Shown here: piece by piece, positions 4,692 through 64,000 of the stretch | How positions within the stretch are numbered: position 1 is the first letter of the stretch | Layout of the letters: each line of letters opens with the position of its first letter | Assembly (NCBI GenBank): GCA_041690135.1 | Contig: JAWLHY010000010.1 | Span: 32,001 to 96,000 of the forward strand | DNA from: Armatimonadota bacterium | GTDB lineage: Bacteria; Armatimonadota; SYMT01 | Direction of reading: 5' to 3' | DNA: 64,000 bases | The notes under the pieces: model-generated | The model's input: the letters and a program-made list of their open reading frames with translations, nothing else | Databases searched by the model: none | What the model was told of the DNA's origin: nothing | Made by a program: the position numbers and the translations under genes

Positions 4692-4797
4692 GAATGAATG
4701 GGGGAACTGATGAATGGAAGAATGGGTGCCCGCCTCAAACAAACCTGGCGTTTGCCTCTCCCATTCCCCATTTCTCCCCCACACCCCCACTCCCATG
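4692..4797. repeat. Inverted pair of purine-rich and pyrimidine-rich short-period repeat tracts
   Basis: gaatgaatgggggaactgatgaatggaagaatggg followed by ctcccattccccatttctcccccacacccccactcccat. Confidence 0.55.
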
Positions 4798-4823
4798 CCA
4801 TCTGGAGACCGTACCCGCTGGAG

Positions 4824-6116
4824 TTACCTCCGAAGGTGTCTGTCCGCGAAGTTGAGGAAGTGGGTCCAGTCCTCCCGGTTCATGGAGTGTTTGCCGGGGC
4901 GGATGAAGTAACCCAGGCGGCTGTCGACGAGCTTCCCGACCGGAGGCATCGTGCTCGCCGCGAGGCCCTCTACCCCCAGGAAACGGTAGACGGGGTCGGC
5001 CGCCTTCAACACCTCGAATTGACCTTCCGGGTTGGCCCAGGTGTCCTCGACGGCATTGCCGAAGAGTACGGGGCGCGGAGCGACGAGGGCCACCAGACTG
5101 TGCTGGTCGAATGGAAGTCGGTCCGTTTTGTCGTTGAACAGGGGGAAGGTATCGTTGAACCAGTGCGGAAAACGGTCGTTGATCTGCTTCACCGACTCGC
5201 CAATCTTGCCCCGGCTGGGGGCGGTACCGCCGCAGCCCGCCTGTAGCGGAATGGACAGCGCGATCCGCTCGTCCAACGCCGCGGCCAGCAGCGCCGTCTT
5301 GCCGTTCCTAGAGTGCCCCACCGTCGCGATGCGTTTGGGATCGACGTGCGGGTCGGTCACCAGGTAGTCAACAGCACGCGAGAAGCCCCAGGCCCACGCG
5401 GCGATGGTGCCCCAGTCGTGGGGACCGAGTTCCTTCTGGCCCGGCTTCAGGTAGTGCGGGTGGACGCCGTCGGAGAAGTCCGGCTTGTCCGGGTCCACGT
5501 CGCCGGTGTAGAAAGTCGCGAGCCCATAACCACGCTCCACGATCAGGTCCACGTTCCAGAGGTCCACCTGGGTACCGCGGGCCGCATCCGTGGCCCGGTT
5601 GTTCACCACGCCTGGACGGTTGGAGTAAATCCAGGCGTCGGATAGCCGGATCTGCGGATCGTTCAGCACCGCATGGTTTCCGGCAAAGTTGATCCCCAGG
5701 AAGGTGGGCACGCGCTTCTTACCATTGGGGGTGACCACCAGGAGGTGGATCGGCGGTGTTCCGGCGGGGCCAAACCGGAGTGTCACCTCCCGCAGAGTCG
5801 CCTTTCCACCCAGCGCGGTGCGGTCTTCCCGCTCCACCTTCGCCTCGACCCGGTCGGGGGCCGGCGGCGCGAAACCGTACATGTAGTGCTGGAACAGGCG
5901 CTTCAGTTCCGGTCGGCGTTCCTTCATCCACTGCTTCTTCGTGGTGACCCGTCGCCCGTCGAGCATCACCAGTGGGTCCGGCAGTCCGGGGTGCGCCGGC
6001 AATTCCGAAACTGGCGGGAGCAACGACTCACGCGGCGCGGTCTCGGCGCCGGTGACGGCGGAAAGGCAAAGGGCGGCGCCGGCGGCGAGGCCGAGCAGGA
6101 GCGTGGTTCGGATCAT
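4824..6116 (-). CDS. CE15 glucuronoyl esterase-like alpha/beta hydrolase, secreted
   Basis: Signal peptide; LPDPL; WGTIAAWAWGFSRAVDYL; nucleophile motif GHSRNGK; LPFDQHSLVALVAPRP; RPGKHSM. Confidence 0.88.
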   Translation of the reverse strand: MIRTTLLLGLAAGAALCLSAVTGAETAPRESLLPPVSELPAHPGLPDPLVMLDGRRVTTKKQWMKERRPELKRLFQHYMYGFAPPAPDRVEAKVEREDRTALGGKATLREVTLRFGPAGTPPIHLLVVTPNGKKRVPTFLGINFAGNHAVLNDPQIRLSDAWIYSNRPGVVNNRATDAARGTQVDLWNVDLIVERGYGLATFYTGDVDPDKPDFSDGVHPHYLKPGQKELGPHDWGTIAAWAWGFSRAVDYLVTDPHVDPKRIATVGHSRNGKTALLAAALDERIALSIPLQAGCGGTAPSRGKIGESVKQINDRFPHWFNDTFPLFNDKTDRLPFDQHSLVALVAPRPVLFGNAVEDTWANPEGQFEVLKAADPVYRFLGVEGLAASTMPPVGKLVDSRLGYFIRPGKHSMNREDWTHFLNFADRHLRR

Positions 6117-6314
6117 GGCAGGTCCCTGGCGATAAAGGTGGTGGAGTGTGGTTCACCATTAACGTTCGTCCGAGGGTGGCGGAAAGTCCTCGTCAAACAC
6201 CACGCGGCAAAGGTGTTCCACAGGCTGCTCATTATCACCATTACCCTAATATTTCAGCGAAACCACGGCGGCGAGTGAATTTCGGTCTGAACCCTCCGTC
6301 TGGGTTGGAACGTG

Positions 6315-6480
6315 GGCTCCCCCTCTCTGCATCGGAGAGGTTTACGCCCCGAGGGGGTGCCGGGTACCCGTGTGCGGGTGGCGGGGGTGAGGTCGTCGTG
6401 CGGATCGTACGTATGATGCAACTGCAGCCCCCGTCCCCTCTCCCGCGCTGCGGGAGAGGGTTACGCCCCGAGGGGTGGGA
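6315..6480. repeat. Two REP-like CCCCTCTC...GAGAGG hairpins, each followed by ttacgccccgagggg
   Basis: ccccctctctgcatcggagaggtttacgccccgagggg and cccctctcccgcgctgcgggagagggttacgccccgagggg. Confidence 0.65.
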
Positions 6481-6558
6481 AGCCGGTGCTCAAGACGAGA
6501 CGGAGCTCATCTCTGGTCGTCGTCGGGTGCACAGGTTTCCAGGTTGGAGAGGGGTGCC

Positions 6559-8898: not shown

Positions 8899-9062
8899 AC
8901 TCCCGCAGGAATTCGGAAGCCTCCTGCCGCGCCAAGGACGTGACCGGTGCATCATTGGTGCCCATCTGTCCGTATTCCCGCCAAGCCACTTCACTCAACT
9001 CGATGACTTGCTGCGTCTCTTTCATCTCTTCGTGCCTTCGTGGTTAACAGGCCCCTGCCGTG

Positions 9063-10469
9063 TCAACGGAGGCGGAGTTGGGTCAGGAAGATGTCGTTGC
9101 TGCCCGTGGCGGTGAGGGAGGCCGTGCCGTAGCGGGTCGTGCGATTGAAGGCGCCGGAGAGATACGCGTGGCCTTTGCCGTCCAGCGCGACGCAGTAGCA
9201 GAGGTCATCCCCCTCCGTGCCGCCGGGTTTGACCCAGGAGAGGGTTCCATTCTGCTCCACGCGGGCTACATAGAGATCGCGTCCGCCGGCGTTGGGCACG
9301 GTGGTAGCGGCATTGGAGCCGGTGGAACTAAAGGTAGCGGTGCCACTGATCTCGCCGACCGCGTAGCAGCCCCCCTTCGGATCGGCCGCGATCCCCAGGC
9401 AATAGTCGATGCCCGCACTTGCCCCCTTGTGAGCCCACCGGGGCTTCCCATCCGGATCGAAGCCGGCAATGAACAGGTCGTAATCGCCGCTGCCGGACAG
9501 GGTGGTGTTTCCAAAGACCGCGGTGCTCTTGAACATACCTCCGATATAGCTGTGGCCCCGGTCGTCCACGGCTACACCGGTCGCCACTCCGTCCGACTTG
9601 CCTCCGGCCCCGGTGGCCCAGAGCGCCCTGCCGTCGGCGTCGTATTTCACCAGGACCACATCCCGCCCGGTTGCCGCATAAGTGGCACCGCCAAAGTCCG
9701 CCTCGGCGGAGACGGAACCGGTCGCCCAGCAGTTCCCGGACCGATCCACGGCAAGAGCCTGCCCGGCCGCGCCCCGGCCGCGGCTCTGACGCACCCAGGC
9801 GATTTTGCCGCTGGGAGCGTACTTTGCGACGAAGAGATGGGAACCGACTGGATTCTCCACCTTTTCCCCACCGAAGTCGTTGTTGCCGACGACGCCCCCG
9901 GTGACATAGCAGTTTCCCGTTCCGTCCACGCCGATCCCGTGACCGTAGTCGTAACCTTCCCCGCCAGCAGTCTGCACCCACTGCAGTTTGCCCTGCGGGT
10001 CGTAGCGGGCCACGAAGATATCGTGATCTCCCCGCTGCGGGAGGGCCGGGCTCCCGTCAAACGTCGCGTCCGTGCTCTGGTAGTGACCGGTCACGAAAAC
10101 GTTGCCTTGCCGGTCGACTTCGACTTCGTAACCGCGGTCCGTTCGGGCTCCCCCACCCTGGCGCACCCACAGGCACTCGCCGGCCGGGCTGTATTTGGCC
10201 ACGAAGAAGTCGTAGTCGCCGCGACTGGTGAGCGTGTGCTTGCCGAAATCGGCGACCTCGGCGAATTCGCCGGTCATGTAGACATTACCCGCAGCGTCGG
10301 TGGTCAGCCCACGGGTCTTATCGGCCTTCTTGCCCCCCGCCCGGACGGCCCAGAGAAACTCCGGCTCCTTCGACTGGCCGGACACGGGGGCGGGGGAAAC
10401 GGCAGCAACCAGGAAAGCAAGGGCAGCCAGGGGCAGAAGCAAGTGGGAAATGCGGCGGTGGTTCATCAC
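9063..10469 (-). CDS. Secreted SBBP-type beta-propeller repeat protein
   Basis: Signal peptide; about seven repeats of DxxGNxYxTGxF...DxFVAKYxxxGxxxW. Confidence 0.85.
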   Translation of the reverse strand: MMNHRRISHLLLPLAALAFLVAAVSPAPVSGQSKEPEFLWAVRAGGKKADKTRGLTTDAAGNVYMTGEFAEVADFGKHTLTSRGDYDFFVAKYSPAGECLWVRQGGGARTDRGYEVEVDRQGNVFVTGHYQSTDATFDGSPALPQRGDHDIFVARYDPQGKLQWVQTAGGEGYDYGHGIGVDGTGNCYVTGGVVGNNDFGGEKVENPVGSHLFVAKYAPSGKIAWVRQSRGRGAAGQALAVDRSGNCWATGSVSAEADFGGATYAATGRDVVLVKYDADGRALWATGAGGKSDGVATGVAVDDRGHSYIGGMFKSTAVFGNTTLSGSGDYDLFIAGFDPDGKPRWAHKGASAGIDYCLGIAADPKGGCYAVGEISGTATFSSTGSNAATTVPNAGGRDLYVARVEQNGTLSWVKPGGTEGDDLCYCVALDGKGHAYLSGAFNRTTRYGTASLTATGSNDIFLTQLRLR

Positions 10470-10574: not shown

Positions 10575-10735
10575 CTTCTTCATCCTCATCTTTTTCATCT
10601 TCTTCATCCTCATCTTCTTCCGTCCACCTGCCCCGCTCTCCCCTTCCTCCTCCTCATCCATCCTCTGCCTCTTCCATCCTCAACCTCATCCATCCACATC
10701 CTTTCCTTATCTTTATCTTCATCGCTCCTCATCCA
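10575..10735. repeat. Pyrimidine-rich (ATCYTY)n hexamer-like tract in a divergent intergenic region
   Basis: ttcatcctcatctttttcatcttcttcatcctcatc...ccttatctttatcttcatc. Confidence 0.65.
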
Positions 10736-19364: not shown

Positions 19365-19520
19365 ATGTGGGGAGTGCTTTGGACGATTATCGCGGTGCTG
19401 GTGGTCCTCTGGATCGTTGGGTTGGTCCTGGACCTGTTTAGCCCCATCCTGCACCTGCTGCTGGTTGTAGCCGCGGTGCTGTTTGTAATCAACATGTTCA
19501 TGGGGCGGACGCGGGTCTAG
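19365..19520 (+). CDS. Small membrane protein, lmo0937/DUF5670-like (51 aa, below the ORF-track cutoff)
   Basis: SD gaaagga; MWGVLWTIIAVLVVLWIVGLVLDLFSPILHLLLVVAAVLFVINMFMGRTRV. Confidence 0.85.
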   Translation: MWGVLWTIIAVLVVLWIVGLVLDLFSPILHLLLVVAAVLFVINMFMGRTRV

Positions 19521-19535: not shown

Positions 19536-20127
19536 GGGTGCGGTTTGGCGGGATCTGGGTTGGCAGGTTGAAGCCCCCCTCGGGGGCCAAGGGGTGAAAG
19601 TTGCTCCGGATCCGGCGCTTGGTACGGTTCGATAAGACCGGGATCCGAGTCGGAAACTTGAGATCCGTCAATCCCCAGCAGGCCTCTCCGGGCTTGGCGT
19701 AATCAGGGCCGGCAGTTCCGTCGGGCTGAAGCGTTTCGCCGTGAGACCTTCAATCCTGACCCCGTAACAGCCGAACCGAATAAGCCGCTGCCGCTGGGCT
19801 CCCAACCTGCCACCTGCCAACCCTCAGCCCTGATTAAATCCCGCGAAGCCGCACCCCATTCTGGCCGCAGGGGTCCCCAACCCCTGGCCCCCAAGGGGGC
19901 ATCAACTTTCAACCTTCAACGCTTGGCCCCCGAGGAGGGCTTCAACCTTCAACCTTCAACCCTTGGCCCCCGAGGGGGGCTTCAACCTTCGACCTTCGAC
20001 CTTCAACTCACAACTCAGATCTCATCGCAGCAAAACCGTACCAGCCTCAGCGACCCGAATTCCTAACCTTCAACTTTCCAACCTTCCAACCTTCAACCTG
20101 CAACCCAGATCCCGCCAAACCGCACCC
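19536..20127. repeat. Composite repeat element with 37-38 bp terminal inverted repeats, (TTCAACC)n tracts and GGCCCCCGAGGGGGGC units (MITE/BIME-like)
   Basis: 19536-19573 gggtgcggtttggcgggatctgggttggcaggttgaag is the reverse complement of 20091-20127 apart from one indel. Confidence 0.8.
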
Positions 20128-21865: not shown

Positions 21866-21915
21866 GGTTGAAGGTTCCAGCCCCCCCTCGGGGGCCGGGA
21901 GTTGAAAGTGGAAAG
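21866..21915 (-). repeat. Heptamer/CCCCCTCGGGGG element, inverted relative to the copies upstream of pyrG
   Basis: ggttgaaggttccagccccccctcgggggccgggagttgaaagtggaaag. Confidence 0.7.
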
Positions 21916-22325: not shown

Positions 22326-22400
22326 GGGCGGCTGCGCCAACCCCTGCCAGCCCCTGGGCTCGCACTCGCCCCCGGACCTTACCCCGACACAACGCCCGAG

Positions 22401-23585
22401 TTAACGCCGTAGACTCTCCCACCAGATGATGTTCTTGCTGTTCTCGCCGGCTTGAATCAGGTCGAGATCGGTATCTCCGTCTAGATCCACGGCCCGGATG
22501 TCATTTCCGGATTGGGTCGCGTCGAGTTCGCGCCGGGTGAACTTTCCTTTGCCATCGTTCTCGAACCAGGCGGTCCGGCCATTCGTCCGTCCAGCACTGA
22601 TGACGTCGAAGTCGCCGTCTTTATCCAGGTCCGCCACCTCGATCGTGTGGGGACCTTCCAGCCAGCCCTCGTCGATAACCCGTTCTTCTTGCCAGCGGGG
22701 CCCGGCCAGCCACCCGATGCCGGAGGCGTGCCCCCGCGAATAGAGCAGGTCCCACTGGCTGTCGTTGTCGGCCTGGAACGGGATGCAATGCGTCGCGCCG
22801 GGAATCTCCTCGCGGATCACGTGTTTGGTCCAGATCAGGGTCGCGTCCGCCGGGCGCTCCCACCACGCCAGGTAGCCGCCTTTGGCAGCCGCGGTCACGA
22901 TGTCACGGTCGCCGTCCTTGTCCAGGTCCACGAACGAGAGGTAGTGGATCTCACCCCCGGCGCCGGAGCGCGCCAGGTACTTCCGCTCCCACATCGGGCG
23001 CCCCGCCGCCTCGCCGCGGTAGCTTGCCGGCAGTGCGCCCTGCGGGTTCCGGGGAATGGAGTACCACACGATCGCTCCCTCGTGAGCGGCGATCAACTCC
23101 GGCCGGCCGTCCCGGTTCAAGTCTTCCAGCGCCTCGAAGTGCACGCCCGGCAGGTTATCGATGAGGTGCCATTTCCACGGCTGCGTCGGGTCGGACGGGC
23201 ACTCGTACCACGCCAGGTTGCCGTTCGCGAGAGTGTGCGAGAGGAGATCCAGGTCCCCATCCCCATCCATGTCGTGCGTCGTCAGCCACGCCGACCAGAC
23301 CGAGCCGGTTTCGTCTGTGCGCTGCTGGATCACGTGCTTGCGCCAAAAACTCGGACGGGTACCCCGATCGAACCAGGCGACTTCCTCGTTGGAGGCGGCA
23401 GCGACATCCAGCTTGCCGTCCTTATTGAAGTCCGCCGCCACCACGCTGCCCGTCGCCGGACCGAATGCAATGATATGCTTCCGGAACCGCAGCCCGGAAC
23501 CCTGGGCCTTCACACCCTCTCCCGTAACCAGGCCACCCGCGACCACCGCGGCCAAACCCGCAACGCACCAACTTCGCTTTTTCAC
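22401..23585 (-). CDS. Secreted FG-GAP/VCBS repeat protein
   Basis: Signal peptide; repeated DxDxDGDxD motifs (DFNKDGKLD, DMDGDGDLD, DLDKDGDRD). Confidence 0.88.
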   Translation of the reverse strand: MKKRSWCVAGLAAVVAGGLVTGEGVKAQGSGLRFRKHIIAFGPATGSVVAADFNKDGKLDVAAASNEEVAWFDRGTRPSFWRKHVIQQRTDETGSVWSAWLTTHDMDGDGDLDLLSHTLANGNLAWYECPSDPTQPWKWHLIDNLPGVHFEALEDLNRDGRPELIAAHEGAIVWYSIPRNPQGALPASYRGEAAGRPMWERKYLARSGAGGEIHYLSFVDLDKDGDRDIVTAAAKGGYLAWWERPADATLIWTKHVIREEIPGATHCIPFQADNDSQWDLLYSRGHASGIGWLAGPRWQEERVIDEGWLEGPHTIEVADLDKDGDFDVISAGRTNGRTAWFENDGKGKFTRRELDATQSGNDIRAVDLDGDTDLDLIQAGENSKNIIWWESLRR

Positions 23586-37794: not shown

Positions 37795-37836
37795 CCTTAT
37801 CCTAATCGTAATCCGAATCCTAATCCACCGAAGGCC
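37795..37836. repeat. Hexamer (CCTWATC-like) tract capped by CCGAAGGCC
   Basis: ccttatcctaatcgtaatccgaatcctaatccaccgaaggcc. Confidence 0.75.
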
Positions 37837-51473: not shown

Positions 51474-52805
51474 CTACACTTCCCGGACGCGGGCGGCGAT
51501 GTCGGAGCGGTAGTGCGCCTGGTCGAACGTGATGGACCGCACGCCGGCATAGGCCCGGTCCGTGGCTTCGGCGAAGGTGGCGCCGACGCCGGTGACGCTC
51601 AAGACCCGTCCGCCAGCGGTAACAATGCCGCCCTCCCGCTCCGCCGTGCCGGCGTGGAACACCGTCACACCGGGAAACCCGGCGGCCGATTCCAGCCCGG
51701 AGATCGGCTTGCCGGTTTCGTAGTCCCCGGGATAGCCCCCGCTGGCCATCACTACGGTAACGGCGCGACCCTCGGGGCCGGACTTCCACGGCACTTCCGA
51801 TTCCACCAACTCCCCGCTTGCCACGGCCAGGAAGAGCTCCACCAGGTCGGCATCCAGGAGGGGCAGGACCACCTGCGTCTCCGGATCGCCGAACCGGCAG
51901 TTGAACTCGATCACCTTCAGGCCGTCCGCCGTGAGCATCAGGCCGGCGTAGAGGCAGCCCCGGAAGGGCGTGCCGTCTTCGCGCAGCCCCCGCAGGGTCG
52001 GGCGGACGATGCGGTCGAGCGCGTCCTGCAGGAGCTCCGGCGTGACGACCGGCGCGGGGGCGTAGCAGCCCATGCCGCCGGTGAGGATCTCGTAGTCGCC
52101 GGCCCAAAGGCTGCGGTCGTTGTCGAAGGCGCGCTTGTAGTCCTGCGCGGGCGGCAGCGGCAACACATGCTCGCCATCCGTGAGGACCAGGAGACTCGCC
52201 TCCGGACCGGAAATCCGCTCCTCGATCACGATCTCCGCCCCGGCCGCGCCAAAGGAGTGGTCGACGAGCATATCGCGGACGGCGGTCCGCGCCTGTTCCA
52301 GGTTGTCGCAGACGATGGAGCCCTTGCCCGCGGCCAGGCCGCTGGCCTTCACCACGGCCGAGGTCGCGCCCCGTGCGGCGAGGTCGTCCAGGAACGCGAG
52401 GGCGGGCTCGGCTTCCTGGAACCGCGCGAAGGCGGGTTGGGGCACCTCCATCCGCGCCATGAGGTCCCGCGCGTAGGCTTTGCTGCTCTCGATGCGGGCG
52501 GCAGCGGCGCTCGGCCCAAACACCGGAATCCCGGCCTCCGCGAGGCGATCCGCCAGGCCGGCCGCGAGGGGCGCTTCCGGGCCCACGACCACCAGCCCAA
52601 TGGCGTTCTCGCGAGCGAATTCCACCTGGCGGTCCAGGTCGCCGACCGGAATCGGCACGCACTCGGCCACCCCGCGCATGCCGGCGTTCCCGGGCGCGGC
52701 GAAGAGGCGGCCACACCGCGGGGACTGTCGCAGCTTCCACGCCAGCGCGTGCTCGCGGCCCCCACCCCCCACTACCAGAATATCGATCTGATCCATAGCT
52801 TCCAT
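51474..52805 (-). CDS. purD: Phosphoribosylamine-glycine ligase
   Basis: GGGGREHAL; VGPEAPL; KASGLAAGKG; TGGMG; EFNCRFGDPETQ; TAGGRVL. Confidence 0.96.
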   Translation of the reverse strand: MEAMDQIDILVVGGGGREHALAWKLRQSPRCGRLFAAPGNAGMRGVAECVPIPVGDLDRQVEFARENAIGLVVVGPEAPLAAGLADRLAEAGIPVFGPSAAAARIESSKAYARDLMARMEVPQPAFARFQEAEPALAFLDDLAARGATSAVVKASGLAAGKGSIVCDNLEQARTAVRDMLVDHSFGAAGAEIVIEERISGPEASLLVLTDGEHVLPLPPAQDYKRAFDNDRSLWAGDYEILTGGMGCYAPAPVVTPELLQDALDRIVRPTLRGLREDGTPFRGCLYAGLMLTADGLKVIEFNCRFGDPETQVVLPLLDADLVELFLAVASGELVESEVPWKSGPEGRAVTVVMASGGYPGDYETGKPISGLESAAGFPGVTVFHAGTAEREGGIVTAGGRVLSVTGVGATFAEATDRAYAGVRSITFDQAHYRSDIAARVREV

Positions 52806-52878: not shown

Positions 52879-52905
52879 CTCGCGCAAAGCCGCAAAGGCG
52901 CCAAG
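52879..52905 (+). repeat. Octamer (CGCAAAGR) repeat element
   Basis: ctcgcgcaaagccgcaaaggcgccaag; related copies at 54707-54731 and 55273-55310. Confidence 0.7.
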
Positions 52906-53050
52906 AGGAAAAGAGGAAAGGGGCAACTTCGTTGTTCGCTCGTTCCGTGTACGGGACGTTCGGGCCTACGGCGATCCCCAACCAGGACGACGTGCGTAGG
53001 AGCCAGAACCAACTGTAGGTGGGTACGGAGGAAAATTCAGGAGGTGAGCC

Positions 53051-53905
53051 GTGGAGCAGAAGGGATACCGAATCCGGACGATGGGGCGGGAGGACCTCGA
53101 CTTTGCCCTTGAACTGGCGAACCAGGAGGGCTGGAACCCGGGCCTCGCCGACGCGAAGTGTTTCTACCAGGCCGATCCGGATGGGTTCTTCGTGGGCGAG
53201 GTGGAGGGTGAGCCGATCGGGTGTATCTCGGCCGTCTCGTACGGTGAAAAGTTCGGATTCATTGGCCTCTACATCGTCGCGCCCCCGCATCGCGGCCGGG
53301 GCTACGGCCTTCAACTGTGGCGGCACGCGATGCAGTACCTGAAGGGCCACAATATCGGGCTCGATGGGGTGGTCGCGCAGCAGGACAACTATCGGAAGTC
53401 GGGCTTCAAGCTGGCCCACCGAAATGTGCGGTATGCTGGCCGCGCCGAGGCGGCAGAACCGGTCCCCCAAACCCCTATCGTTCCGGCCGCCACCGTTCCC
53501 TTCGAAAGACTGGCCGCCTACGACCGCACGGCCTTCCCCGCCGGGCGCGACCGCTTTCTCCAATCGTGGTTGGGAGTTCCCGGAGGCACCGCCCTGGCGT
53601 GGCACGACGGCGACACCCTCTCCGGGTACGGCGTGGTCCGGCCTTGCCGGCAGGGCTTCAAAGTCGGTCCCCTCTTCGCCGACACTCCCGAGGTTGCGGA
53701 GGCCCTCCTGCGCGCGCTGATCGCGGAGATCCCCGTGGGAAGTGACCTGTTCCTCGACGTCCCCGAACCCAATACCGAGGCCGTGAACCTCGCGCGTCGG
53801 CACGGGATGCAGCCGGTGTTCGAAACGGCCCGGATGTACACCGGCGAGGACCCGGCCCTGCCGCTAGAGCGGATCTTCGGGATCACCACCTTCGAGCTGG
53901 GTTGA
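53051..53905 (+). CDS. GNAT acetyltransferase (YitH-like, two domains)
   Basis: SD aggaggtg; EGWNPG; FIGLYIVAPPHRGRGYG; YRKSGF; KVGPLFAD; FETARMY; FELG. Confidence 0.9.
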   Translation: MEQKGYRIRTMGREDLDFALELANQEGWNPGLADAKCFYQADPDGFFVGEVEGEPIGCISAVSYGEKFGFIGLYIVAPPHRGRGYGLQLWRHAMQYLKGHNIGLDGVVAQQDNYRKSGFKLAHRNVRYAGRAEAAEPVPQTPIVPAATVPFERLAAYDRTAFPAGRDRFLQSWLGVPGGTALAWHDGDTLSGYGVVRPCRQGFKVGPLFADTPEVAEALLRALIAEIPVGSDLFLDVPEPNTEAVNLARRHGMQPVFETARMYTGEDPALPLERIFGITTFELG

Positions 53906-53983
53906 TGAATGCTTTCCGTATGCGGTTGAGGGGAGCCACAGATCTCACAGATGAGACTTGCACGTCGCGGGTAGCAAGTCAGT

Positions 53984-54841
53984 ATGGCTACTCACATCGG
54001 GACTTCGGGGTGGAGCTACGACCACTGGGTTGACATCGTCTACCCGCGGCGGGCGTCGTCGCTGGAGCGGCTGGACCGGTATGCCGAGCGGTTCGGGACG
54101 GTGGAGGTGAACTTCACCTACTACCGCTGGCCGCAAGACTCGACTTTCACAACGTGGCGGGAGCGGGCGCCGGAGGGGTTTCTTTTCTCGGTAAAGGCGT
54201 CGCGGGGGATCACCCACTTCGCGAAGCTGCGGGACCCGAGCCAATGGCTGGAGAAGATGGGCCGGGGCCTGGAACAACTCGGCGACCGGATGGGCGTGCT
54301 GCTGTTCCAGCTTCCCGCCGCCTTCCCCTGCGACCTGGAGCGCCTGGAGTCGTTCCTGGAGGAACTGCCGGACTGGTATCGGAGCGCCATCGAATTCCGG
54401 CACCCGAGTTGGGACCGGGAAGAGGTGTACCAGCTCCTTGAGCAGTATGGGGTCGGCTACTGCGTGATGAGCGGGGCCGGTCTGCCATGCGTGCTCCGTG
54501 CCACCGCACACTTCGTGTACGTGCGCCTACACGGGCCGGATCCACACCACCTCTACGGCGGCTCCTATTCGGAGGAGGATATGCGCTGGTGGGCGGAGCG
54601 GATCGCCGAGTGGGAGGCCCAGGGTCGCGACGTGTGGGCCTACTTCAACAACGACTGGGAGGGGAACGCCGTGCGAAACGCGGAGACGCTGTTGAAGGAG
54701 GTGTCTCTCGCAAAGACGCAAAGGCGCAAAGAAGAAGGGGAAAGAGGGAGAGCCACGGATTTCACAGATTTGGAAGCGATTGAGGAGCGCGAGAGAAGGG
54801 TGGATGGCCGTGAAGTGAGCGGGGTGGGAAAGTGGGGGTGA
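53984..54841 (+). CDS. DUF72 family protein with repeat-derived C-terminal tail
   Basis: IGTSGWSY; VEVNFTYY; LLFQLP; EFRHPSW; YVRLHG; YFNND. Confidence 0.92.
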   Translation: MATHIGTSGWSYDHWVDIVYPRRASSLERLDRYAERFGTVEVNFTYYRWPQDSTFTTWRERAPEGFLFSVKASRGITHFAKLRDPSQWLEKMGRGLEQLGDRMGVLLFQLPAAFPCDLERLESFLEELPDWYRSAIEFRHPSWDREEVYQLLEQYGVGYCVMSGAGLPCVLRATAHFVYVRLHGPDPHHLYGGSYSEEDMRWWAERIAEWEAQGRDVWAYFNNDWEGNAVRNAETLLKEVSLAKTQRRKEEGERGRATDFTDLEAIEERERRVDGREVSGVGKWG

Positions 54842-54941: not shown

Positions 54942-55262
54942 ATGATGAAGAAGTCTTGTGCCCTGGTTTTGACGATCGCCGCGCTGACCGTGACCGCTCC
55001 GATGACCGTTCATGCCGCCAAGAAGCCGGCCGTGAAGAAGTCCGGCGTGGCGGTGGCGAAGCTGAAGATCACGGGGATGCACTGCGAGGGCTGCGCGATG
55101 GGGATCACGCGGCAGGTGCAGAAGGTGAAGGGCGTGAAGACCGCCAAGATCGACCACGCGAAGTCGCTGGGGACCATCGAGTACGACCCGAGCGCGTGCA
55201 AGCCGGCGGACCTGCTGGCGGCGGTGAAGAAAAGCGGCTACAAGGCGTCGTTGCTGAAGTAA
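54942..55262 (+). CDS. Secreted heavy-metal-associated (HMA/MerP-like) protein
   Basis: Signal peptide; ITGMHCEGCA; ends AVKKSGYKA. Confidence 0.88.
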   Translation: MMKKSCALVLTIAALTVTAPMTVHAAKKPAVKKSGVAVAKLKITGMHCEGCAMGITRQVQKVKGVKTAKIDHAKSLGTIEYDPSACKPADLLAAVKKSGYKASLLK

Positions 55263-55323
55263 CGGGCGGGACCTCACCGCAAAGGCGCAAGAGCCGCCGA
55301 GGGCCGCAAGGAAAAGCAAGAAA

Positions 55324-58823: not shown

Positions 58824-60749
58824 TTACGGTAGGGCGAAGGCGACAAAGACATCCCCCGCCGGGGTCGCGAGCTTGCCCCCGCCGGCCGCCGCGATGGCCA
58901 CGTAATGCTTGCCGTTAACCGCATAGGTGCAGGGGGTGGCGTACCCTCCGAACGGCAACTTGTACTCCCATAACTCCTTGCCGGTCTTTTTATCGAAGGC
59001 ACGGAACATCTCGTCCTTGGTGCCGGCCGCGAAAACGAGACCCCCCGCGGTGACGATGGTCCCGCCCAGGTTCTCGGTTCCGGTGGGCGGCAGGCCTTTG
59101 CGGGTCAACTCGGGGAACTCGCCCAGCGGGATCTGCCAGCGGAACTCGCCCCTGTTCAGGTCGATGGCGGTAAGGTTCCCCCACGGCGGCTTCACGGCGG
59201 GATAACCGAACTGGTCGTGGAAGCGGCCGTAGCCGGTGTTGCGGTACGGATCCCGCGAACCGGAGGCCGTCTTTTCCAGGTGGTGCTCCCGGGGGATGTT
59301 GTTGGAGTTCACGTAGAGCGTGCCGGTGGTCGGGTCGAAGGAGGCCCCGGACCAGGTGGCGCCCCCAAAGAAGCCGGGGAAACGGATGGTCGGCTGGAAG
59401 CCCGTCGGGGTGAAGATGGGGCCGTACTTCATGCCCTGGATCTTCTCCGAAACGTATCGGCGCGATTCCGGAGAGATGTTGGTGACCTCTTCCGGCCCGA
59501 ACCCCTGGCGGGAGAAGGGCGGCGGCTTGAGGGGGAAGACCTGGGTCGGCCAGGCCGCCTCTCCCGGAATGTCCGAAGGCGGGACGGAACGCTCTTCCAT
59601 GGGAAACAGCGGCTCGCCGGTCTTGCGGTCGAGCACGAAGCAATAGCCGGTCTTGGTCACCTGGGCCACCGCTTCCCGGAGCCGGCCGTTCTGCCGGACG
59701 GTGCAGACGACCGGCGGGCAGGGGTTGTCGTAGTCCCACAAGTCGTGGCGGACCACCTGGTAGTGCCAGAGACGTTTTCCGGTGTTCGCATCCAGGGCAA
59801 TGATGCAGTTGCCGAACAGGTTCCGCCCCTTGCGGTCCCCTCCGTAGAAGTCGAAGGCCGGAGATCCGGTGCCGACGAAGACGATCTCGTTCCGGGTATC
59901 GACGGTGGCGCCGCTCCAGGAGTTGCAGCCGCCCCGCTCCTTCCAGGTGTCCGTTGCCCACGTGTCGTGCCCGTACTCACCCGGCCGGGGGACCGTATGG
60001 AAGCGCCACACCTCCTTGCCGGTACGAACGTCGAACGCGCGCACGTCGCCCGGAGCGCCGGGGCCCGTCCCCTCGCCGTTCGCAAATCCCAGGATCGCCA
60101 GGTCGCGATAGATGGCGGGCGGCGAGGTGCAGCCGTAGGGCAACCTGCTGATGTCCCGCTCGATGCCGGCCCGGAGGTCCACCTCTCCACCCTTTCCGAA
60201 CGCCGGGTCCGGCTTCCCGGTGTGCGCGTCGAGCGAGAGGAGCCGGCCGTCCGCCGTCCCCATCAGGACCCGCCGGAGACCGTTCGGCTTGCCGTCCGAC
60301 CAGTAGCTCACGCCCCGGTTCACCCCGCCGGACGCGATGATCTGGCCCGGGCGGGGACGCGCGAAGGGATCGTACTTCCACCGCTCCTTGCCGGTCGCGG
60401 CATCCAACGCGACGATCTTGACCCGCGGGCTGCAGGTGGTGACGTACATCCAGCCGTCCACTACCACCGGGGTGCACTCGATGTTCGTCAACTTCTGGGG
60501 ATCGGCGTCACCCGTGTGATAGCTCCAGGCCGGCTTGAGTTTCCGGACGTTCTTGCGGTTGATCTGATCGAGGCGTGAGTACCGCGTGCCTTCGCGGTCG
60601 CCGTTCGTCGCCAGCCAATCGGCGCGCACCCCGATGGGGTCAGGCATGGGCGCCTGCGCGGCGGCGGCCCCGGCGAGAAGGCCGAGGGAGACGAGAGCTA
60701 GTCTTGAAGTACGAGGTGTGAGGTGCGAGGTGCGAAATATCCGACGCAT
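58824..60749 (-). CDS. PQQ-dependent dehydrogenase (glucose/quinate family)
   Basis: RYSRLDQINRKNV; NRGVSYW; DFYGGDRKG; HDLWDYD; KPPWG; TGTENLGG. Confidence 0.92.
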   Translation of the reverse strand: MRRIFRTSHLTPRTSRLALVSLGLLAGAAAAQAPMPDPIGVRADWLATNGDREGTRYSRLDQINRKNVRKLKPAWSYHTGDADPQKLTNIECTPVVVDGWMYVTTCSPRVKIVALDAATGKERWKYDPFARPRPGQIIASGGVNRGVSYWSDGKPNGLRRVLMGTADGRLLSLDAHTGKPDPAFGKGGEVDLRAGIERDISRLPYGCTSPPAIYRDLAILGFANGEGTGPGAPGDVRAFDVRTGKEVWRFHTVPRPGEYGHDTWATDTWKERGGCNSWSGATVDTRNEIVFVGTGSPAFDFYGGDRKGRNLFGNCIIALDANTGKRLWHYQVVRHDLWDYDNPCPPVVCTVRQNGRLREAVAQVTKTGYCFVLDRKTGEPLFPMEERSVPPSDIPGEAAWPTQVFPLKPPPFSRQGFGPEEVTNISPESRRYVSEKIQGMKYGPIFTPTGFQPTIRFPGFFGGATWSGASFDPTTGTLYVNSNNIPREHHLEKTASGSRDPYRNTGYGRFHDQFGYPAVKPPWGNLTAIDLNRGEFRWQIPLGEFPELTRKGLPPTGTENLGGTIVTAGGLVFAAGTKDEMFRAFDKKTGKELWEYKLPFGGYATPCTYAVNGKHYVAIAAAGGGKLATPAGDVFVAFALP

Positions 60750-61843: not shown

Positions 61844-61912
61844 GGATTTGCGGGGCGATGGATCGCCGCGACCCGATAATCTGCTCGGTAACTACCGGAG
61901 ACAAAGAAGAGC

Positions 61913-62914
61913 ATGAGTTTCGACGTTTTTAGCATGTGCAACGCCCTGTACGACATCCAGGCCGAGGTCCACGACGAGATCCTGACGGAGCTGGAGCTGG
62001 AAAAAGGCAGTATGGTCCTGCTGAGTGAAGAACAGCAGGCGGCCATCGTGCCGCGGGTGTACACCCACATCGTCCACACGGAATCGGGTGGGTCAGGCGC
62101 CAACACGGCCTTCGGCGTGGCGCTGCTGGGCGGCACCGCCTGCTATACCAGTCGCGTGGGCGACGACGAGCACGCCGACCTGTATCGCGAGGGACTGGCG
62201 GCCCGCGGTGTGAAGCCGAACCTGGGTTCCGGGACCGGGGCCACGGGCGTGTCGCTGATCCTGGTGACGCCGGACGCCCAGCGGACCATGTGCACCTACC
62301 TGGGCCGCTCCCGCGAGCTGACGAGCGACGACCTGAACCTGGACGACCTGCGCGCCAGCAAGTACCTCTATGTGACCGCGTACCTGTGGGACACGGACAA
62401 CCAGAAGGCCGCCGTGCTCCGCGCGATGGAAGAAGCGAACCGCGCGGGGGTGAAGGTCGCGCTGAGCCTTTCGGACCCGTTTTGCGTACATCGCCACAAG
62501 CAGGAGCTGCTGGAACTGATTAGCAACCACGTCGACCTCCTGATCGGGAACCAGTCCGAGGCGGAGGTCCTGACCGACACCACCACGGCCGAAGACGCGC
62601 TGCGGGTGCTGGCCGGGCACAGTGAGATCGCCGTGGTGACGATGGACGAAAAGGGCTCGATGATCCGGCGCGGCGAGGAAGTGGTGACCATTCCGGTGTA
62701 CCCGGTGCGGCCGGTGGACACCACCGGGGCCGGCGACATGTACGCGGCGGGCCTTCTCTACGGCCTCACCCAGGGCTACTCGCTGGAGATCACCGGGCGC
62801 ATCGCCGCCTACGCCGCGGCGCAGGTGGTGGCGAAGATGGGCCCGCGCCTGGAAACAATCGACCACGACGCGCTGGCGAAACTGCGGGCGGGCACGGACT
62901 TCGCGGACCTTTGA
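61913..62914 (+). CDS. PfkB family kinase (adenosine kinase-like)
   Basis: NALYDI; SGGSGANT; TPDAQRTMCTYLG; DTTGAGDMYAAG. Confidence 0.92.
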   Translation: MSFDVFSMCNALYDIQAEVHDEILTELELEKGSMVLLSEEQQAAIVPRVYTHIVHTESGGSGANTAFGVALLGGTACYTSRVGDDEHADLYREGLAARGVKPNLGSGTGATGVSLILVTPDAQRTMCTYLGRSRELTSDDLNLDDLRASKYLYVTAYLWDTDNQKAAVLRAMEEANRAGVKVALSLSDPFCVHRHKQELLELISNHVDLLIGNQSEAEVLTDTTTAEDALRVLAGHSEIAVVTMDEKGSMIRRGEEVVTIPVYPVRPVDTTGAGDMYAAGLLYGLTQGYSLEITGRIAAYAAAQVVAKMGPRLETIDHDALAKLRAGTDFADL

Positions 62915-62974
62915 GTTCATCCGCTAAGGTTTACACCGCACAGGAGTGCACGAAGGACACAAAGACGGAGTTAT

Positions 62975-63207
62975 GAGGGGAGGGGTAGCGAATTGTGGGG
63001 GATTTGCGATTATTCCCCTCGGCACCGTGAACGTTGCCGCTGCGGTTAACTGTGGTCGCGAATGCCGTGTTCACAGCGGGTGCAACCCGTGTTCGGGAGT
63101 GTGCACGAGTTGCACCCGTTGCTCGGACCGCGACCAACGCCCTTGGCCCACACCCAGTGGGTACCCGGGACCCCGGCTCTGCTACCTCAGATAACCGTAA
63201 CCGGTTC
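62975..63207. other. Chain of hairpins between convergent pfkB and proS (REP mosaic or ncRNA)
   Basis: gagggga/tcccctc; ggtcgcg/cgcgacc enclosing cgggtgcaac/gttgcacccg; GGGTACCC element. Confidence 0.5.
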
Positions 63208-63254
63208 GGTTGATCCCGCAGAGCGCCAACCTCATCCTGATCGTTATCCTTATC

Positions 63255-64000
63255 CTAATCCGTACCGGGGTATTCGGGGGCCAGGATCTTCTCTTCGGCT
63301 TCGGCGAGCAGGGCGGCAATCTCCTGTTGAATGGCCGCGATCCCCTCCTCCAACGGCACGATGCGGCTTTCGGAGGAGGTGCGCCGCTTCAACTCGATCC
63401 CGCCGTTCTTGAGCGACCGGCTGCTGATCGTCGCCCGGAGCGGGATCCCGATCAGGTCCGCGTCCGCGAACTTCACACCCGGGGCCGCTTCCCGGTCGTC
63501 GAAGAGCACCTCAACCCCCGCCGCGCGCAGGCCACGGTACAGTTCCTCGGCCTGGGCCTTCAGGTCGGCGTCGCCGCCGGTGAGCGCCACCAGGGAGAGT
63601 TGGTACGGTGCAACGGTAATCGGCAGGGTCAGGCCCCGCTCGTCGGCATACGCTTCCGCGAGGCAGGCCAGGAGGCGCCCCACGCCGATGCCGTAGGAGC
63701 CCATCACCACCGGTTTCGACTGCCCTTCCGCATCCAGGTAGTTGGCCTCCAGAGCCGCGGTATAGCGGGTGCCGAGCTGAAAGATATTGCCGACCTCCAC
63801 GCCCCGGACGAGGTGCAGGGCGCCGCCGCACTCCGGACAGGGCGCGCCTTCGTAGGCGGAAGCGATATCGGCGGTCGCGTCCGGACGGTAGTCCCGCCCC
63901 ACGTTCACGCCACGGTAGTGGAAACCTTCCTCGTTGGCGCCGGACACCAGGTTGGGGGAACCGGCCACCAGGTCGTCCACCACCACCCGGGTCCGGTTGC
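63255..64000 (-). CDS. proS: Prolyl-tRNA synthetase, 3' part
   Basis: GANEEGFH; GVEVGNIFQLG; MGSYGIGVGR; DDR..PGVKFADADLIGIP. Confidence 0.96.
   Translation of the reverse strand, partial: NRTRVVVDDLVAGSPNLVSGANEEGFHYRGVNVGRDYRPDATADIASAYEGAPCPECGGALHLVRGVEVGNIFQLGTRYTAALEANYLDAEGQSKPVVMGSYGIGVGRLLACLAEAYADERGLTLPITVAPYQLSLVALTGGDADLKAQAEELYRGLRAAGVEVLFDDREAAPGVKFADADLIGIPLRATISSRSLKNGGIELKRRTSSESRIVPLEEGIAAIQQEIAALLAEAEEKILAPEYPGTD

Follow-up and report, generated by a model that had tools for sequence, protein, structure and literature searches.

Short tandem arrays lie between the genes of this genome as dispersed intergenic simple-sequence repeats under a polarity rule at gene ends: the G-rich, C-poor strand leads away from the nearest stop or start codon, and the rule is symmetric. 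Read on the outward strand (5' to 3' away from the nearest gene), G exceeded C in 911 of the 1,147 arrays lying no more than 160 nt from a gene end (p = 6e-94). Across the genome, outward G>C stood to C>G as 553:186 for stop-side arrays and 515:155 for start-side arrays, and the bias decayed to random past about 160-320 nt. Stop-proximal arrays begin 0-20 nt past stop codons, and start-side arrays lie a median of 83 nt upstream of the start. These counts confirm genome-wide what an initial annotation of the window (the whole 64,000-nt stretch analysed) had claimed, namely multi-family repeats at gene boundaries with non-random polarity. Its wording, a transcription-linked polarity of the sense strand, gives way to the symmetric rule: orientation matched the outward strand in 75.8% of arrays, local GC skew in 58.6% and the sense strand of the nearest gene in 50.2%, the last figure following from the same rule holding at both stops and starts. 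Orientation is thus neither random nor explained by replichore GC skew, the two outcomes against which the annotation had set its claim.

The genome (9.10 Mb, 25 contigs) yielded 4,124 tandem arrays with periods of 5-10; 1,564 are intergenic, against a non-coding share of the DNA of 16.5%. Genes were taken from a home-made dicodon caller (7,244 genes, 83.5% coding), whose start codons are approximate. Intergenic arrays are short, the median one spanning 25 nt with 3.2 copies and the 90th percentile reaching 43 nt. The 464 unit families of the genome, with units of 6-9 nt, form a cloud of one-base variants; a handful of units are found at 50-70 loci apiece, the single most frequent recur at up to 71-75 intergenic loci, and some arrays show higher-order periods of 25-40 nt. 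Arrays are densest in convergent spacers (1.33 per kb), followed by co-directional (1.12) and divergent ones (0.73). The genome is of PVC type, with 118 PSD1 matches and no WhiB match.

The polarity held at 612:124 outward G>C (83%) where gene calls on both flanks were confident (348:72 on the stop side, 264:52 on the start side), and at 802:217 when one array per gene end was counted. Orientation reverses between the two sides of one spacer in all four spacer types and keeps to the rule under both signs of local GC skew (69-83%). The sense strand of co-directional spacers begins G-rich over the ~20% that follows the stop, switches about 40% along and is then C-rich until the next start; in those of 100-400 nt, sense-strand G:C counts were 119:20 over the initial fifth and 25:152 over the half nearer the start. 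Spacers with two arrays show the G-then-C order 83 times and C-then-G 11 times. Start-side polarity was stronger in co-directional than in divergent spacers (264:41 vs 137:52; Fisher p = 1.4e-4), and the stop-side difference between convergent and co-directional spacers was not significant (205:45 vs 305:98; p = 0.064). Spacer DNA outside the repeats is barely skewed.

In the window, 17 intergenic arrays of period 5-10 were detected with TRF, 12 of them outward G>C and five C>G; these and weaker elements are collected in Table 1. All 13 post-stop sites of the initial annotation do lie downstream of a stop in the orientation given, 12 of them at -7 to 72 nt by our own gene calls; five are TRF arrays at score at least 30 and the others are two-copy or degenerate. 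Their sense strand, described as purine/G-rich, has G>C at 10 sites but not at the two CACAGATTT sites (30451, 31474) or the HMA site (55273), so the description is not literal for every family. C-rich strands were said to tend to precede starts, as they do at 19880-20127 and 41033; those at 10575 and 35596 lie in divergent spacers, nearer the start of the other gene. The site at 52879, singled out as an exception, obeys the symmetric rule, its G-rich strand pointing outward 73 nt from the start of 51474..52805(-).

Table 1. Repeat elements at gene boundaries in the 64-kb window
Position	Strand	Element	Context
4757..4797	-	G-rich tract + octamer (CCCCCACA x2.4 on +)	26 nt past stop of 4824..6116(-); outward G 0.59, C 0.02
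9016..9047	-	CACGAAGG-type two-copy repeat	16 nt past stop of 9063..10469(-); under TRF threshold; sense strand purine-rich; this site (SBBP) also overlaps a weak 54-aa ORF from the home-made caller
10575..10695	-	C/T-rich arrays on + (CTTCATCTT x5.1; 16-mer x2.8)	divergent spacer; breaks nearest-gene rule, 105 nt from start of - gene
19536..19575	+	G-rich tract ending GGTTGAA + GCCCCCC..GGGGGC hairpin	15 nt past stop of small gene 19365..19520
19878..20127	-	TTCAACC heptamer arrays alternating with GGCCCCCGAGGGGGC hairpins; 40-nt higher-order period x3.1	upstream of pyrG; C-rich on sense strand, upstream of its promoter-like TTGACT-17-TAAACT (20132-20160)
21866..21915	+	GGTTGAAGG, hairpin, GTTGAAAG repeats, then 13-bp hairpin	6 nt past pyrG stop; region folds at -46.9 kcal/mol, z -4.5
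22336..22356	-	GCCAACCCCT x2.1 on +	44 nt past stop of 22401..23555(-); G-rich in that gene's sense
30451..30470	-	CACAGATTT-family element	10 nt past stop of 30481..31230(-)
31473..31491	-	GGGGAGCCACAGATTTCACAGATTT element (nonamer x2)	9 nt past stop of 31501..32766(-)
32985..33031	-	degenerate GATAAG/GATTAAG array	72 nt past stop of 33104..35533(-)
35596..35744	-	TCAACC heptamers with hairpins (33-nt period x2.6; CTTCAAC x4.9)	divergent spacer; breaks nearest-gene rule
37794..37826	-	AGGATT hexamer x5.5	17 nt past stop of 37844..38737(-); RNA unstructured, z -1.4
40940..40956	+	GATAAG x2.8	10 nt past helicase stop; 5' arm of long hairpin; region 40930-41062 folds at -66.6 kcal/mol, z -7.1 (0/200 shuffles as stable)
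41033..41052	-	CTTTAT/CTTATC x3.3	92 nt upstream of 41145..41540(+); 3' arm, pairs with 40940-40956
52883..52919	+	CGCAAAGC x2.9 + AAGAGGAA x2.1	73-97 nt from start of 51474..52805(-); G/A-rich strand outward
53930..53955	+	GGGGAGCCACAGATCTCACAGAT element	24 nt past stop of 53051..53905(+)
55273..55300	+	CGCAAAGG-type two-copy repeat	10 nt past stop of 54942..55262(+); not G>C
60712..60735	+	CGAGGTG x3.4	divergent spacer, 64 nt from start of 58824..60647(-); G-rich strand outward
62949..62975	+	CACGAAGG/CACAAAGA repeat	34 nt past stop of 61913..62914(+)
63230..63261	-	GATAAG/AGGATT hexamers x5.3	abuts/overlaps stop of 63255..65048(-); RNA unstructured, z +0.85

Composition carries most of this signal. 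Of the single variables, G minus C predicts orientation best (79% sign agreement); A minus T adds slightly to it on the stop side only, and stop-codon and Shine-Dalgarno-like content gave no predictive gain beyond composition. Among the 23 larger families, each with at least eight gene-proximal arrays, 18 are at least 75% one-way, and the preferred outward unit is G>C in 21 and G<C in none. The CACAGATTT family is strongly polar (15:1 on the stop side) though its outward strand is not G>C. Some families carry conserved companion modules: GGTTGAA arrays co-occur with a GCCCCCC..GGGGGCCAGG module (25 outward vs 7 inward), and GCGT-type heptamers with an ACGTGCG..CCTCGG module (28 vs 7). The flanks of most families hold no conserved sequence, and boundaries are sharp, with ~27-30% identity on either side in the unit window next to the array and no decay gradient at either end. 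RNA of solitary arrays folds as unstructured; array RNA read toward the gene has C 0.37 and G 0.19, with periodic pyrimidine-C dinucleotides.

Rho is known to load on C-rich, G-poor, unstructured RNA, at sites usually put at ~60-80 nt. Our leading reading, held tentatively, is that the arrays may act as orientation-selective transcription punctuation through putatively Rho-friendly incoming RNA. Arrays would originate and lengthen by slippage and be retained mostly where transcripts running into a gene (read-through from the upstream gene, antisense from a convergent neighbour or from a downstream promoter) carry a tract that is rich in C, poor in G, unstructured and free of Shine-Dalgarno-like sequence. 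Rho would load on this incoming tract, and outgoing transcripts would bear the G/A-rich complement, which it should bind poorly. The arrays would then form a strand-polar shield of each gene against incoming transcription, in a genome nearly without hairpin-plus-U terminators, and facing arrays of one family could additionally make a long hairpin across the spacer. The long 3' duplexes proposed earlier apply only to a minority: among 136 neighbouring G-then-C pairs, 27 form inverted repeats of one family. The other RNA-level idea of the initial annotation, a candidate effect on Rho loading, agrees with the data.

Support for the Rho reading is circumstantial: rho is present (two Rho_RNA_bind matches), intrinsic terminators are few (a perfect hairpin with T-tail within 120 nt past the stop in 61 of 3,946 genes vs 38 in the antisense control) and solitary arrays are unstructured. 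Equally circumstantial is the higher polarity where incoming transcription is expected, as on the start side of co-directional relative to divergent spacers, and so is the array density, highest in convergent and lowest in divergent spacers. On the start side, promoters seem to fall between array and gene, judging from ~90 hexamer hits and the single pyrG locus: -10-like hexamers number 39 sense vs 11 antisense between array and start, and 22 vs 17 beyond the array. Read toward the gene, array RNA resembles rut sites in its C-richness, pyrimidine-C periodicity and scant structure, but the arrays are far shorter than typical loading regions, which counts against Rho. The same is true of the 72% polarity in divergent spacers, where incoming transcription is expected to be low, of the non-significant stop-side difference, of the polar CACAGATTT family without outward G>C, and of the recurrence of a few units at many loci and in other genera, which Rho loading alone does not explain.

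A neutral mutational polarity is unlikely. Arrays would preferentially expand or persist where the outward transcription that dominates locally has a G-rich non-template strand, for example by R-loop-promoted slippage, with no selected function. It fits the rise of the outward G>C share with copy number (69% at up to 2.5 copies, 87% at 3.5-5), the one-base-variant clouds, the gain and loss of arrays at the same locus between genera (pyrG arrays occur in 3/7 genomes, with a different unit each time) and the length and sequence variation among close Xanthomonas species noted by Rehm et al. (PMC4692102). It sits poorly with the turn of one strand from G-rich to C-rich within co-directional spacers, whose start-side half is the most polar class although read-through there runs the wrong way. 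Arrays within genes, the most heavily transcribed, are moreover close to neutral (1,237:1,033), array ends lack a decay gradient, and non-template cytosine deamination predicts more T than A in the sense strand past stops, where A>T is observed.

We regard as improbable that the arrays are composite mobile elements, BIME- or MITE-like assemblies of arrays and family hairpin modules that are mobilised in trans with a gene-end bias of insertion or retention. Identical units at dozens of loci, the modules of the GGTTGAA and GCGT-type families, the higher-order periods, nine Y1_Tnp matches in the genome and the presence of GCGTATT, GGATGAA and GACACAGAGG units in another genus, at different loci, would suit such elements. 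Yet most families lack conserved flanks, boundaries are sharp, and arrays as a whole show no excess of nearby GC hairpins (192/1,564 vs 380/3,000 random intergenic sites). Dense arrays lay beside 0/7 Y1-transposase loci examined, with one array near one locus, and we know of no mobiliser that inserts with symmetric gene-end polarity. The trans-acting mobiliser offered as an alternative in the initial annotation is not supported.

Binding sites for sequence-specific RNA- or DNA-binding proteins (such as 3'-end stabilisers, translational regulators or nucleoid proteins), where polarity would mark the bound strand, seem a distinctly improbable general answer. Orientation within single families reaches 54/55 (AAGGAT) and 21/21 (GCGTATT), CACAGATTT is polar without G>C skew, arrays begin shortly past stops, and binding by S1, Csp or CsrA is argued for TAACTGA repeats by MacGregor 2015 (PMC4679880). 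However, 464 unit families would call for a great many binders, no motif tested predicts orientation better than composition alone, and unit repertoires vary between genera of one family.

The G-quadruplex or i-motif elements proposed for Xanthomonas and Nostoc heptamers (PMC4692102) share the geometric rule, and the 68 of 1,146 skewed arrays with a four-run G3 motif are polar at 52:16; as a general explanation they are very improbable, being largely refuted by polar arrays without G-runs. The motif is absent from 94% of arrays, polarity is equal in arrays with no GG on either strand (122:30, 80%) and in those without GGG (305:74 and 146:28), and copy number shows no peak at four. That the rule is an artefact of replichore GC skew or home-made gene calls is scarcely credible: local skew has a small genuine effect and start codons are approximate, but orientation flips left to right within the same spacer and under either skew sign, the stop-side result depends on stop codons alone, polarity is stronger with high-scoring flanking genes (83%), no hidden C-sense arrays are absorbed in ORF 3' ends (49:32 and 72:48), and a matching rule stands on curated annotations in an independent paper (PMC4692102).

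The rule is a multi-family, quadruplex-independent form of one already reported for single repeat types, since the same geometry is in print for GGGAATC in Xanthomonas campestris and X. axonopodis and GGGGA(C/T)T (GGGGAYT) in Nostoc PCC 7120 (Rehm et al. 2015, PMC4692102). Those heptamers, too, are dispersed, mainly intergenic tandem repeats whose G-rich strand lies nearer the 5' neighbouring ORF regardless of ORF direction, on the non-coding strand upstream and on the coding strand downstream, 0-50 bp from the stop or overlapping it; some form convergent inverted pairs, and they are scarce between divergent genes and show no replication-strand preference. In that source each genome has one quadruplex-capable family with four units preferred, whereas here hundreds of families, nearly all arrays lacking the motif, bear the polarity through G>C composition in a host of another phylum. 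The initial annotation, which knew of no description of this multi-family polarity rule, is therefore wrong for the rule itself, in print with one family per genome. TAACTGA repeats of marine Beggiatoaceae, cyanobacteria and Bacteroidetes are likewise intergenic heptamer arrays (2-6 copies) with strong orientation bias to genes and no evident mobiliser, but form a single family, with 147/170 sets oriented toward the start codon and the largest class ending 1 nt upstream of it, much closer than here, and the accessible text describes neither a stop-side class nor a symmetric rule (MacGregor 2015, PMC4679880). The multi-family form was not found in the literature searched.

Cyanobacterial STRR heptamers are said, after Mazel et al. 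1990, to occur as several families per genome dispersed in intergenic DNA, and roles in termination and mRNA stability have been proposed for enterobacterial REP/BIME elements. The arrays share with STRR the short tandem units between genes and the multiple families per genome, and differ in unit sequence; gene-end polarity can be compared for STRR through the Nostoc data (PMC4692102). REP/BIME elements, with their RAYT transposases (PMC3733652), are also extragenic, high-copy, often directly past stops and arranged in mosaic clusters, as the GGTTGAA and CGGGTGTT families join arrays and GC hairpins here; but a REP is an imperfect palindrome that has a conserved tetranucleotide head and its cognate RAYT, whereas most arrays here lack an adjacent hairpin and Y1-transposase genes are not array-flanked.

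Among six sampled relatives, polarity is absent in two (G001, 4:7; G007, 6:7), one of them array-poor, which also counts against Rho-based punctuation. Four of the six show the same lean, and the TTGACT-17-TAAACT element of the pyrG locus recurs in two relatives.

Intergenic short tandem arrays in the source genome (9.10 Mb, 25 contigs, ~65% G+C) tend to be oriented relative to the nearest gene end. Our analysis shows that this polarity is a symmetric, composition-based and distance-dependent rule common to many unit families: the strand that reads away from the gene, from its stop or its start alike (the outward strand), carries more G than C in 911 of the 1,147 arrays within 160 nt of a gene end (binomial p=6e-94). 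Scored by purines, the sense strand is purine-rich in arrays nearest a stop (492:122) and pyrimidine-rich in those nearest a start (361:129). Scored by G minus C on the outward strand, the ratios (G>C : C>G, here and below) are 553:186 on the stop side and 515:155 on the start side. The excess is present left and right in all four spacer types (++, --, +-, -+); it reaches 612:124 (83%), either side alike, where both flanking genes score at least 100, and 802:217 when one array is counted per gene end. Polarity peaks close to genes (99:19 for arrays 0-10 nt from a stop) and has vanished beyond ~160-320 nt. It climbs with copy number: arrays of no more than 2.5 copies show 69%, those of 3.5-5 copies 87%. 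About half of the arrays lie on the stop side, 445 of 814 within 40 nt of the stop or overlapping it, and the 43 overlapping arrays are polar 39:4. Start-side arrays, C-rich on the sense strand, lie at a median of 83 nt upstream of the start. Array density per kb is 0.73 in divergent, 1.12 in co-directional and 1.33 in convergent spacers.

The initial annotation had described the polarity as linked to the sense strand of transcription. The polarity at gene boundaries is real, but the G-rich strand coincides with the sense strand of the nearest gene in 50.2% of arrays, with the outward strand in 75.8% and with the one favoured by local GC skew in 58.6% (n=1,409), so that the rule is one of gene ends rather than of sense strands. 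The outward rule holds on both signs of local GC skew (69-83%), which, together with its presence on both sides of the four spacer types, rules out a replichore explanation.

These counts rest on genes called with a custom dicodon log-odds model. It was trained on those long ORFs of the genome itself that show the GC pattern expected at codon positions, and retrained once, after which ORFs were chosen greedily without overlap (stop codons exact, start codons approximate). The 7,244 genes obtained leave 16.5% of the DNA non-coding and 83.5% coding. From 6,901 TRF rows we retained 4,124 arrays of period 5-10, of which 1,564 are intergenic, against the 16.5% of DNA that is non-coding; intergenic and coding arrays number 441:361 at period 7 and 439:302 at period 8. 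Dozens of unit families recur, the largest being AAGGAT (the GATAAG of the initial annotation), AACCTTC (the reverse complement of GGTTGAA), AACACCCG, AATCCT and AATACGC. The median copy number is 3.2. Array borders are sharp: in 309 arrays the flanking unit windows, gene-proximal and distal alike, stand at random identity (0.27-0.30), with no gradient on either side that would show a direction of array growth.

Among single variables, orientation is best predicted by G minus C (sign agreement 79%), to which A minus T adds a small contribution on the stop side only; stop-codon, start-codon and Shine-Dalgarno-like content brought no gain over the two (cross-validated accuracy 0.79-0.80). Among the 23 families with at least eight gene-proximal arrays, 18 are at least 75% one-way and 15 reach p<0.05, with extremes of 54/55 for AAGGAT, 21/21 for GCGTATT and 13/13 for GGAAGGTT. 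In 21 of these families the unit preferred on the outward strand has G>C, in two G=C and in none G<C. The smaller CACAGATTT family is polar without G>C on the outward strand (for its two-copy core genome-wide, 15 sense versus 1 antisense on the stop side and 9 antisense versus 2 sense on the start side), and composition is therefore a rule of thumb and not the whole story. General spacer composition was rejected as the cause, non-repeat spacer DNA being barely skewed: purines make up 0.527 of the bases 20-60 nt past stops and ~0.50 of those ahead of starts, the last 20 nt excepted.

Within co-directional spacers 100-400 nt long, arrays are G-rich on the sense strand over the first fifth (119:20) and C-rich in the half next to the start (25:152), with a mixed zone at 30-50% of the length. 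Two-array spacers run G-then-C in 83 cases and C-then-G in 11, and neighbouring arrays show 136 G-to-C transitions versus 21 C-to-G. Inverted pairs exist, but they are a minority: same-family inverted repeats make up 27 of the 136 G-then-C pairs by a lenient test, and by a strict one an exact same-family partner lies 3' of 24 and 5' of 2 of 545 purine-rich arrays. Pairing thus fails as the main explanation; most arrays are solitary, and the rule belongs to each gene end rather than being a by-product of hairpins. Paired arrays do make long hairpins (see the coordinate table), and solitary arrays are unstructured as RNA (z -1.4 and +0.85). A telomere-like 3' extension or break-healing origin, which would give G on the left and C on the right, was set aside, since arrays adjoin gene ends and not the spacer centre.

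Because a replication-tied mutational cause is excluded and a simple transcription-coupled one fits poorly, we favour orientation-selective retention of arrays. The leading, if tentative, candidate for what is selected is the handling of RNA by Rho. C-rich, G-poor, unstructured RNA is a good Rho substrate. RNA entering a gene through an array would be of just this kind and would lack ribosome-binding-like sequence, and RNA leaving the gene would be its complement. Inward-reading RNA of the arrays has C 0.367 and G 0.188, a composition that fits a rut site, where RNA of this kind stimulates Rho and termination follows downstream. Rho is present, the RNA-binding domain matching in two separate open frames that are possibly two rho paralogues. 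Canonical intrinsic terminators, scored as a T-rich tail behind a perfect hairpin (6 bp or more), are scarce: only 61 of 3,946 genes have one, compared with 38 in the antisense control, and 1,046 genes are followed by a perfect GC hairpin that lacks the tail. We also counted in favour of Rho the stronger polarity where incoming transcription is expected (start side, co-directional 264:41 versus divergent 137:52, p=1.4e-4; stop side, convergent 205:45 versus co-directional 305:98, p=0.064), the lower density in divergent spacers, and the placement of start-side arrays, which appear to lie upstream of promoters. This placement is based on a -10-like hexamer only, sense-enriched between array and start (39:11) and not beyond the array (22:17); the strict -35/-10 pattern gave too few hits to place arrays, and TTGAC alone showed no sense enrichment. 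Against Rho we counted the shortness of the arrays, a polarity still at 72% in divergent spacers, and the recurrence of particular units, which Rho leaves unaccounted for.

A bolder extension, about which we are doubtful, would make the many unrelated repeats a general, composition-encoded punctuation of bacterial genes, each gene being bracketed by arrays that read C-rich on entering and G-rich on leaving RNA. In place of intrinsic terminators, the arrays would then serve as polar cassettes for Rho loading, or as insulators, and the STRR-type repeats of cyanobacteria and the GGGAATC repeats of Xanthomonas would follow the same logic. Should the arrays be polar insulators, they would offer a simple portable part for read-through control in high-GC bacteria; should they prove neutral, they would be a natural and sensitive record of the direction of transcription nearby.

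Array expansion biased by R-loops, without function, we consider unlikely. A simple transcription-coupled cause fits poorly with a strand that switches sign within one spacer, with the start side of co-directional spacers as the most polar class, and with the near neutrality of arrays inside genes (1,237:1,033).

Lower still we place composite mobile elements, to which a few families lend some colour. Family-specific modules and higher-order periods occur in the GGTTGAA, CGGGTGTT and CAGGTGTT families and in GCGT-type heptamers. A dispersed module of ~50 nt, ACGTGCGAGG..GGGGCAGGG..GCCTCGG, is bracketed on both sides by GCGTAAT/GCGTGAT/GCGTATT heptamers; a regular expression finds 52 instances, and a separate scan placed 35 in intergenic DNA (28 outward versus 7 inward) and 16 in called genes. 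Its 7-bp closing stem is weakly supported, with a mean of 4.67 pairs versus 4.38 +- 0.11 for shuffled partners (2 of 500 as good) and both C:G and U:A at one position; RNAalifold on a gappy alignment of the module returned no structure. The 40- and 33-nt higher-order repeats of the window resemble BIME mosaics in layout. REP/BIME elements with their RAYT, however, have an imperfect palindrome as the repeated unit and a cognate Y1 transposase gene flanked by its repeats. In the source genome, a perfect GC hairpin lies within 40 nt of 192 of 1,564 arrays (12.3%) and of 380 of 3,000 random intergenic sites (12.7%), enrichment being limited to GGTTGAA (22/75), CGGGTGTT (11/60) and CAGGTGTT (8/24). 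RAYT-type genes had been put forward as possible carriers of dense flanking copies; among nine Y1_Tnp matches we examined seven loci, and none is densely flanked, a single array lying near one. Flanks of most families carry no conserved sequence. A role as protein-binding sites is very unlikely in our estimate.

Quadruplexes are the explanation preferred in earlier work on comparable repeats, and here they are highly improbable. Quadruplex potential is irrelevant to polarity: the four-run G3 motif occurs in only 68 of 1,146 skewed arrays, and arrays without any GG dinucleotide on either strand are still polar 122:30. Artefact can be dismissed almost entirely, the near-neutral genic arrays and the lack of a hidden pool of C-sense arrays in ORF 3' ends (49:32 and 72:48) excluding ascertainment through stop-free C-rich arrays.

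Bacteria have been known for decades, since about 1990, to carry dispersed heptamer-type repeats, for which no function is generally accepted. The initial annotation knew of no description of a multi-family polarity rule; for single families the rule is already in print. Rehm et al. 2015 (PMC4692102) describe a GGGAATC repeat in two species of Xanthomonas and a GGGGA(C/T)T repeat in Nostoc PCC 7120, on the non-coding strand upstream of genes and on the coding strand downstream, 0-50 bp from the stop. Their convergent inverted pairs number 70-75, the repeats are under-represented between divergent genes, and neither replication strand is favoured; the authors preferred quadruplexes and left function open. 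The polarity described here is the same rule. Both sets consist of dispersed, mostly intergenic tandem units (6-9 nt in our genome), have the G-rich strand nearer the 5' neighbouring ORF whatever its orientation, have stop-side arrays near or overlapping the stop, and are scarce between divergent genes. Our inverted pairs have the corresponding chirality, but only a minority of arrays form them. The two sets differ in that the Rehm et al. unit is quadruplex-forming, with four copies preferred, and most of our arrays are not of this type. Among three further papers, MacGregor 2015 (PMC4679880) treats a different heptamer that is start-codon-directed, its TAACTGA-type repeats lying forward and directly upstream of starts, at or replacing the ribosome-binding site, unlike our start-side arrays; Huang and Mrazek 2014 (PMC4060949) report an excess of oligopurine and G patterns in the planctomycete Isosphaera; and Subirana and Messeguer 2019 (PMC6749651), in the accessible part, do not treat repeat orientation. 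Our literature search, with subscription journals and supplements outside its reach, found no paper on multi-family polarity or on PVC genomes. Gene-end polarity in single families was thus known from PMC4692102, and the multi-family, quadruplex-independent case appears to be new.

Here the rule recurs across some two dozen abundant families of unrelated units, also in arrays unable to form quadruplexes, which shifts the explanation away from any one structure and towards the excess of G over C on a strand relative to gene ends. The present case drops quadruplexes, widens the rule to many families and to a third phylum, so that it may be general, and gives a testable link to termination biology, through Rho or R-loops.

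Unit families differ between genomes. Three-copy GGTTGAA occurs 65 times in the source genome and in 0 of 20 relatives, and among 201 genomes sampled from the phylum AGGATN x4 occurs in two, the source genome and its relative G006. Other genomes have their own families of like polarity, and GCGTATT, GGATGAA and GACACAGAGG recur in another genus at other loci. No polarity was seen in the sampled DNA of the array-poor G001 or of G007.

Polarity of intergenic arrays in sampled DNA of related genomes (G>C : C>G on the outward strand), with gene calls self-trained on small samples and cruder than those of the source genome
Genome	Relation	DNA sampled	Intergenic arrays	Stop side	Start side
G005	same family	400 kb	75	30:13	16:8
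G006	same family	173 kb	30	12:2	6:7
G016	another family of the phylum	116 kb	26	14:4	6:2
G169	another family of the phylum	340 kb	27	8:4	10:3
G001	same family	400 kb	15	3:3	1:4
G007	same order	149 kb	14	3:5	3:2

Comparison of orthologous loci for empty sites, as the initial annotation had proposed, was informative at pyrG: among seven genomes three have arrays, each of a different unit and each abiding by the rule, and the site is empty in four. Elements like the pyrG promoter candidate of the window (TTGACTCC...TAAACT / TAGACT) lie upstream of the orthologues in the relatives G004 and G005. Between the source genome and G005, the 400-kb sample holds only six conserved adjacent gene pairs, too few to inform. 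As a side observation, the PSD1 (DUF1553) domain has 118 matches in the source genome, mostly in open frames of ~800-1,300 aa, and WhiB has none. Such a PSD1 expansion typifies PVC bacteria, and we therefore treated the genome as PVC-type (Planctomycetota or Verrucomicrobiota); a pyrG comparison with named contigs gave inconsistent labels, and a protein atlas pointed to Actinomycetota/Planctomycetota.

In the window, all 13 repeats that had been placed after stops do lie downstream of a stop in the orientation described, 12 of them at -7 to 72 nt by our calls. That the sense strand is G-rich held for 10, which have G>C, and failed for the two CACAGATTT sites and the HMA site. Only five of the 13 reach a TRF score of at least 30, the remainder being two-copy or degenerate. 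Among the window's 17 intergenic TRF arrays of period 5-10, the outward strand is G-rich in 12 and the opposite strand in five. The array at 52879, first taken for an exception, obeys the rule relative to its nearer, leftward gene. An Rfam scan of the window at gathering thresholds gave 0 matches, and sequencing runs searched for words of the genome returned two soil DNA runs (0.05 share of words) and no RNA run. The CGCAAAGA array is either translated or marks an ORF called too long.

Coordinates of arrays, elements and domains (window positions unless a contig is named)
Feature	Position	Strand	Detail
SBBP site	9016-9047		16 nt after the stop of 9063..10469(-)
True exception	10575		divergent spacer
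True exception	35596		divergent spacer
GGGGAGCCACAGAT(T/C)TCACAGAT element	30451-30470	-	just after stop codon
GGGGAGCCACAGAT(T/C)TCACAGAT element	31473-31491	-	just after stop codon
GGGGAGCCACAGAT(T/C)TCACAGAT element	53930-53955	+	just after stop codon
Higher-order repeat, 40 nt	19878-20001		GGCCCCCGAGGGGGC-type hairpin with two or three TTCAACC heptamers
Higher-order repeat, 33 nt	35640-35724		GGCCCCCGAGGGGGC-type hairpin with two or three TTCAACC heptamers
Promoter-like element	20132-20160	+	TTGACT-17 nt-TAAACT, ~60 nt upstream of pyrG start; TTCAACC arrays precede
Perfect 13-bp hairpin	21916-21945	+	CAGGGGTCTCGC ATGC GAGACCCCTG, after pyrG array region; no T-tail
Paired arrays, long hairpin	40930-41062		-66.6 kcal/mol, z=-7.1
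CGCAAAGA x3, then purine-rich tract	54709-54732	+	inside 3' end of called ORF 53984..54841
Rho RNA-binding domain	C1:228934-229149		open frame 437 aa
Rho RNA-binding domain	C6:187838-188053		open frame 418 aa
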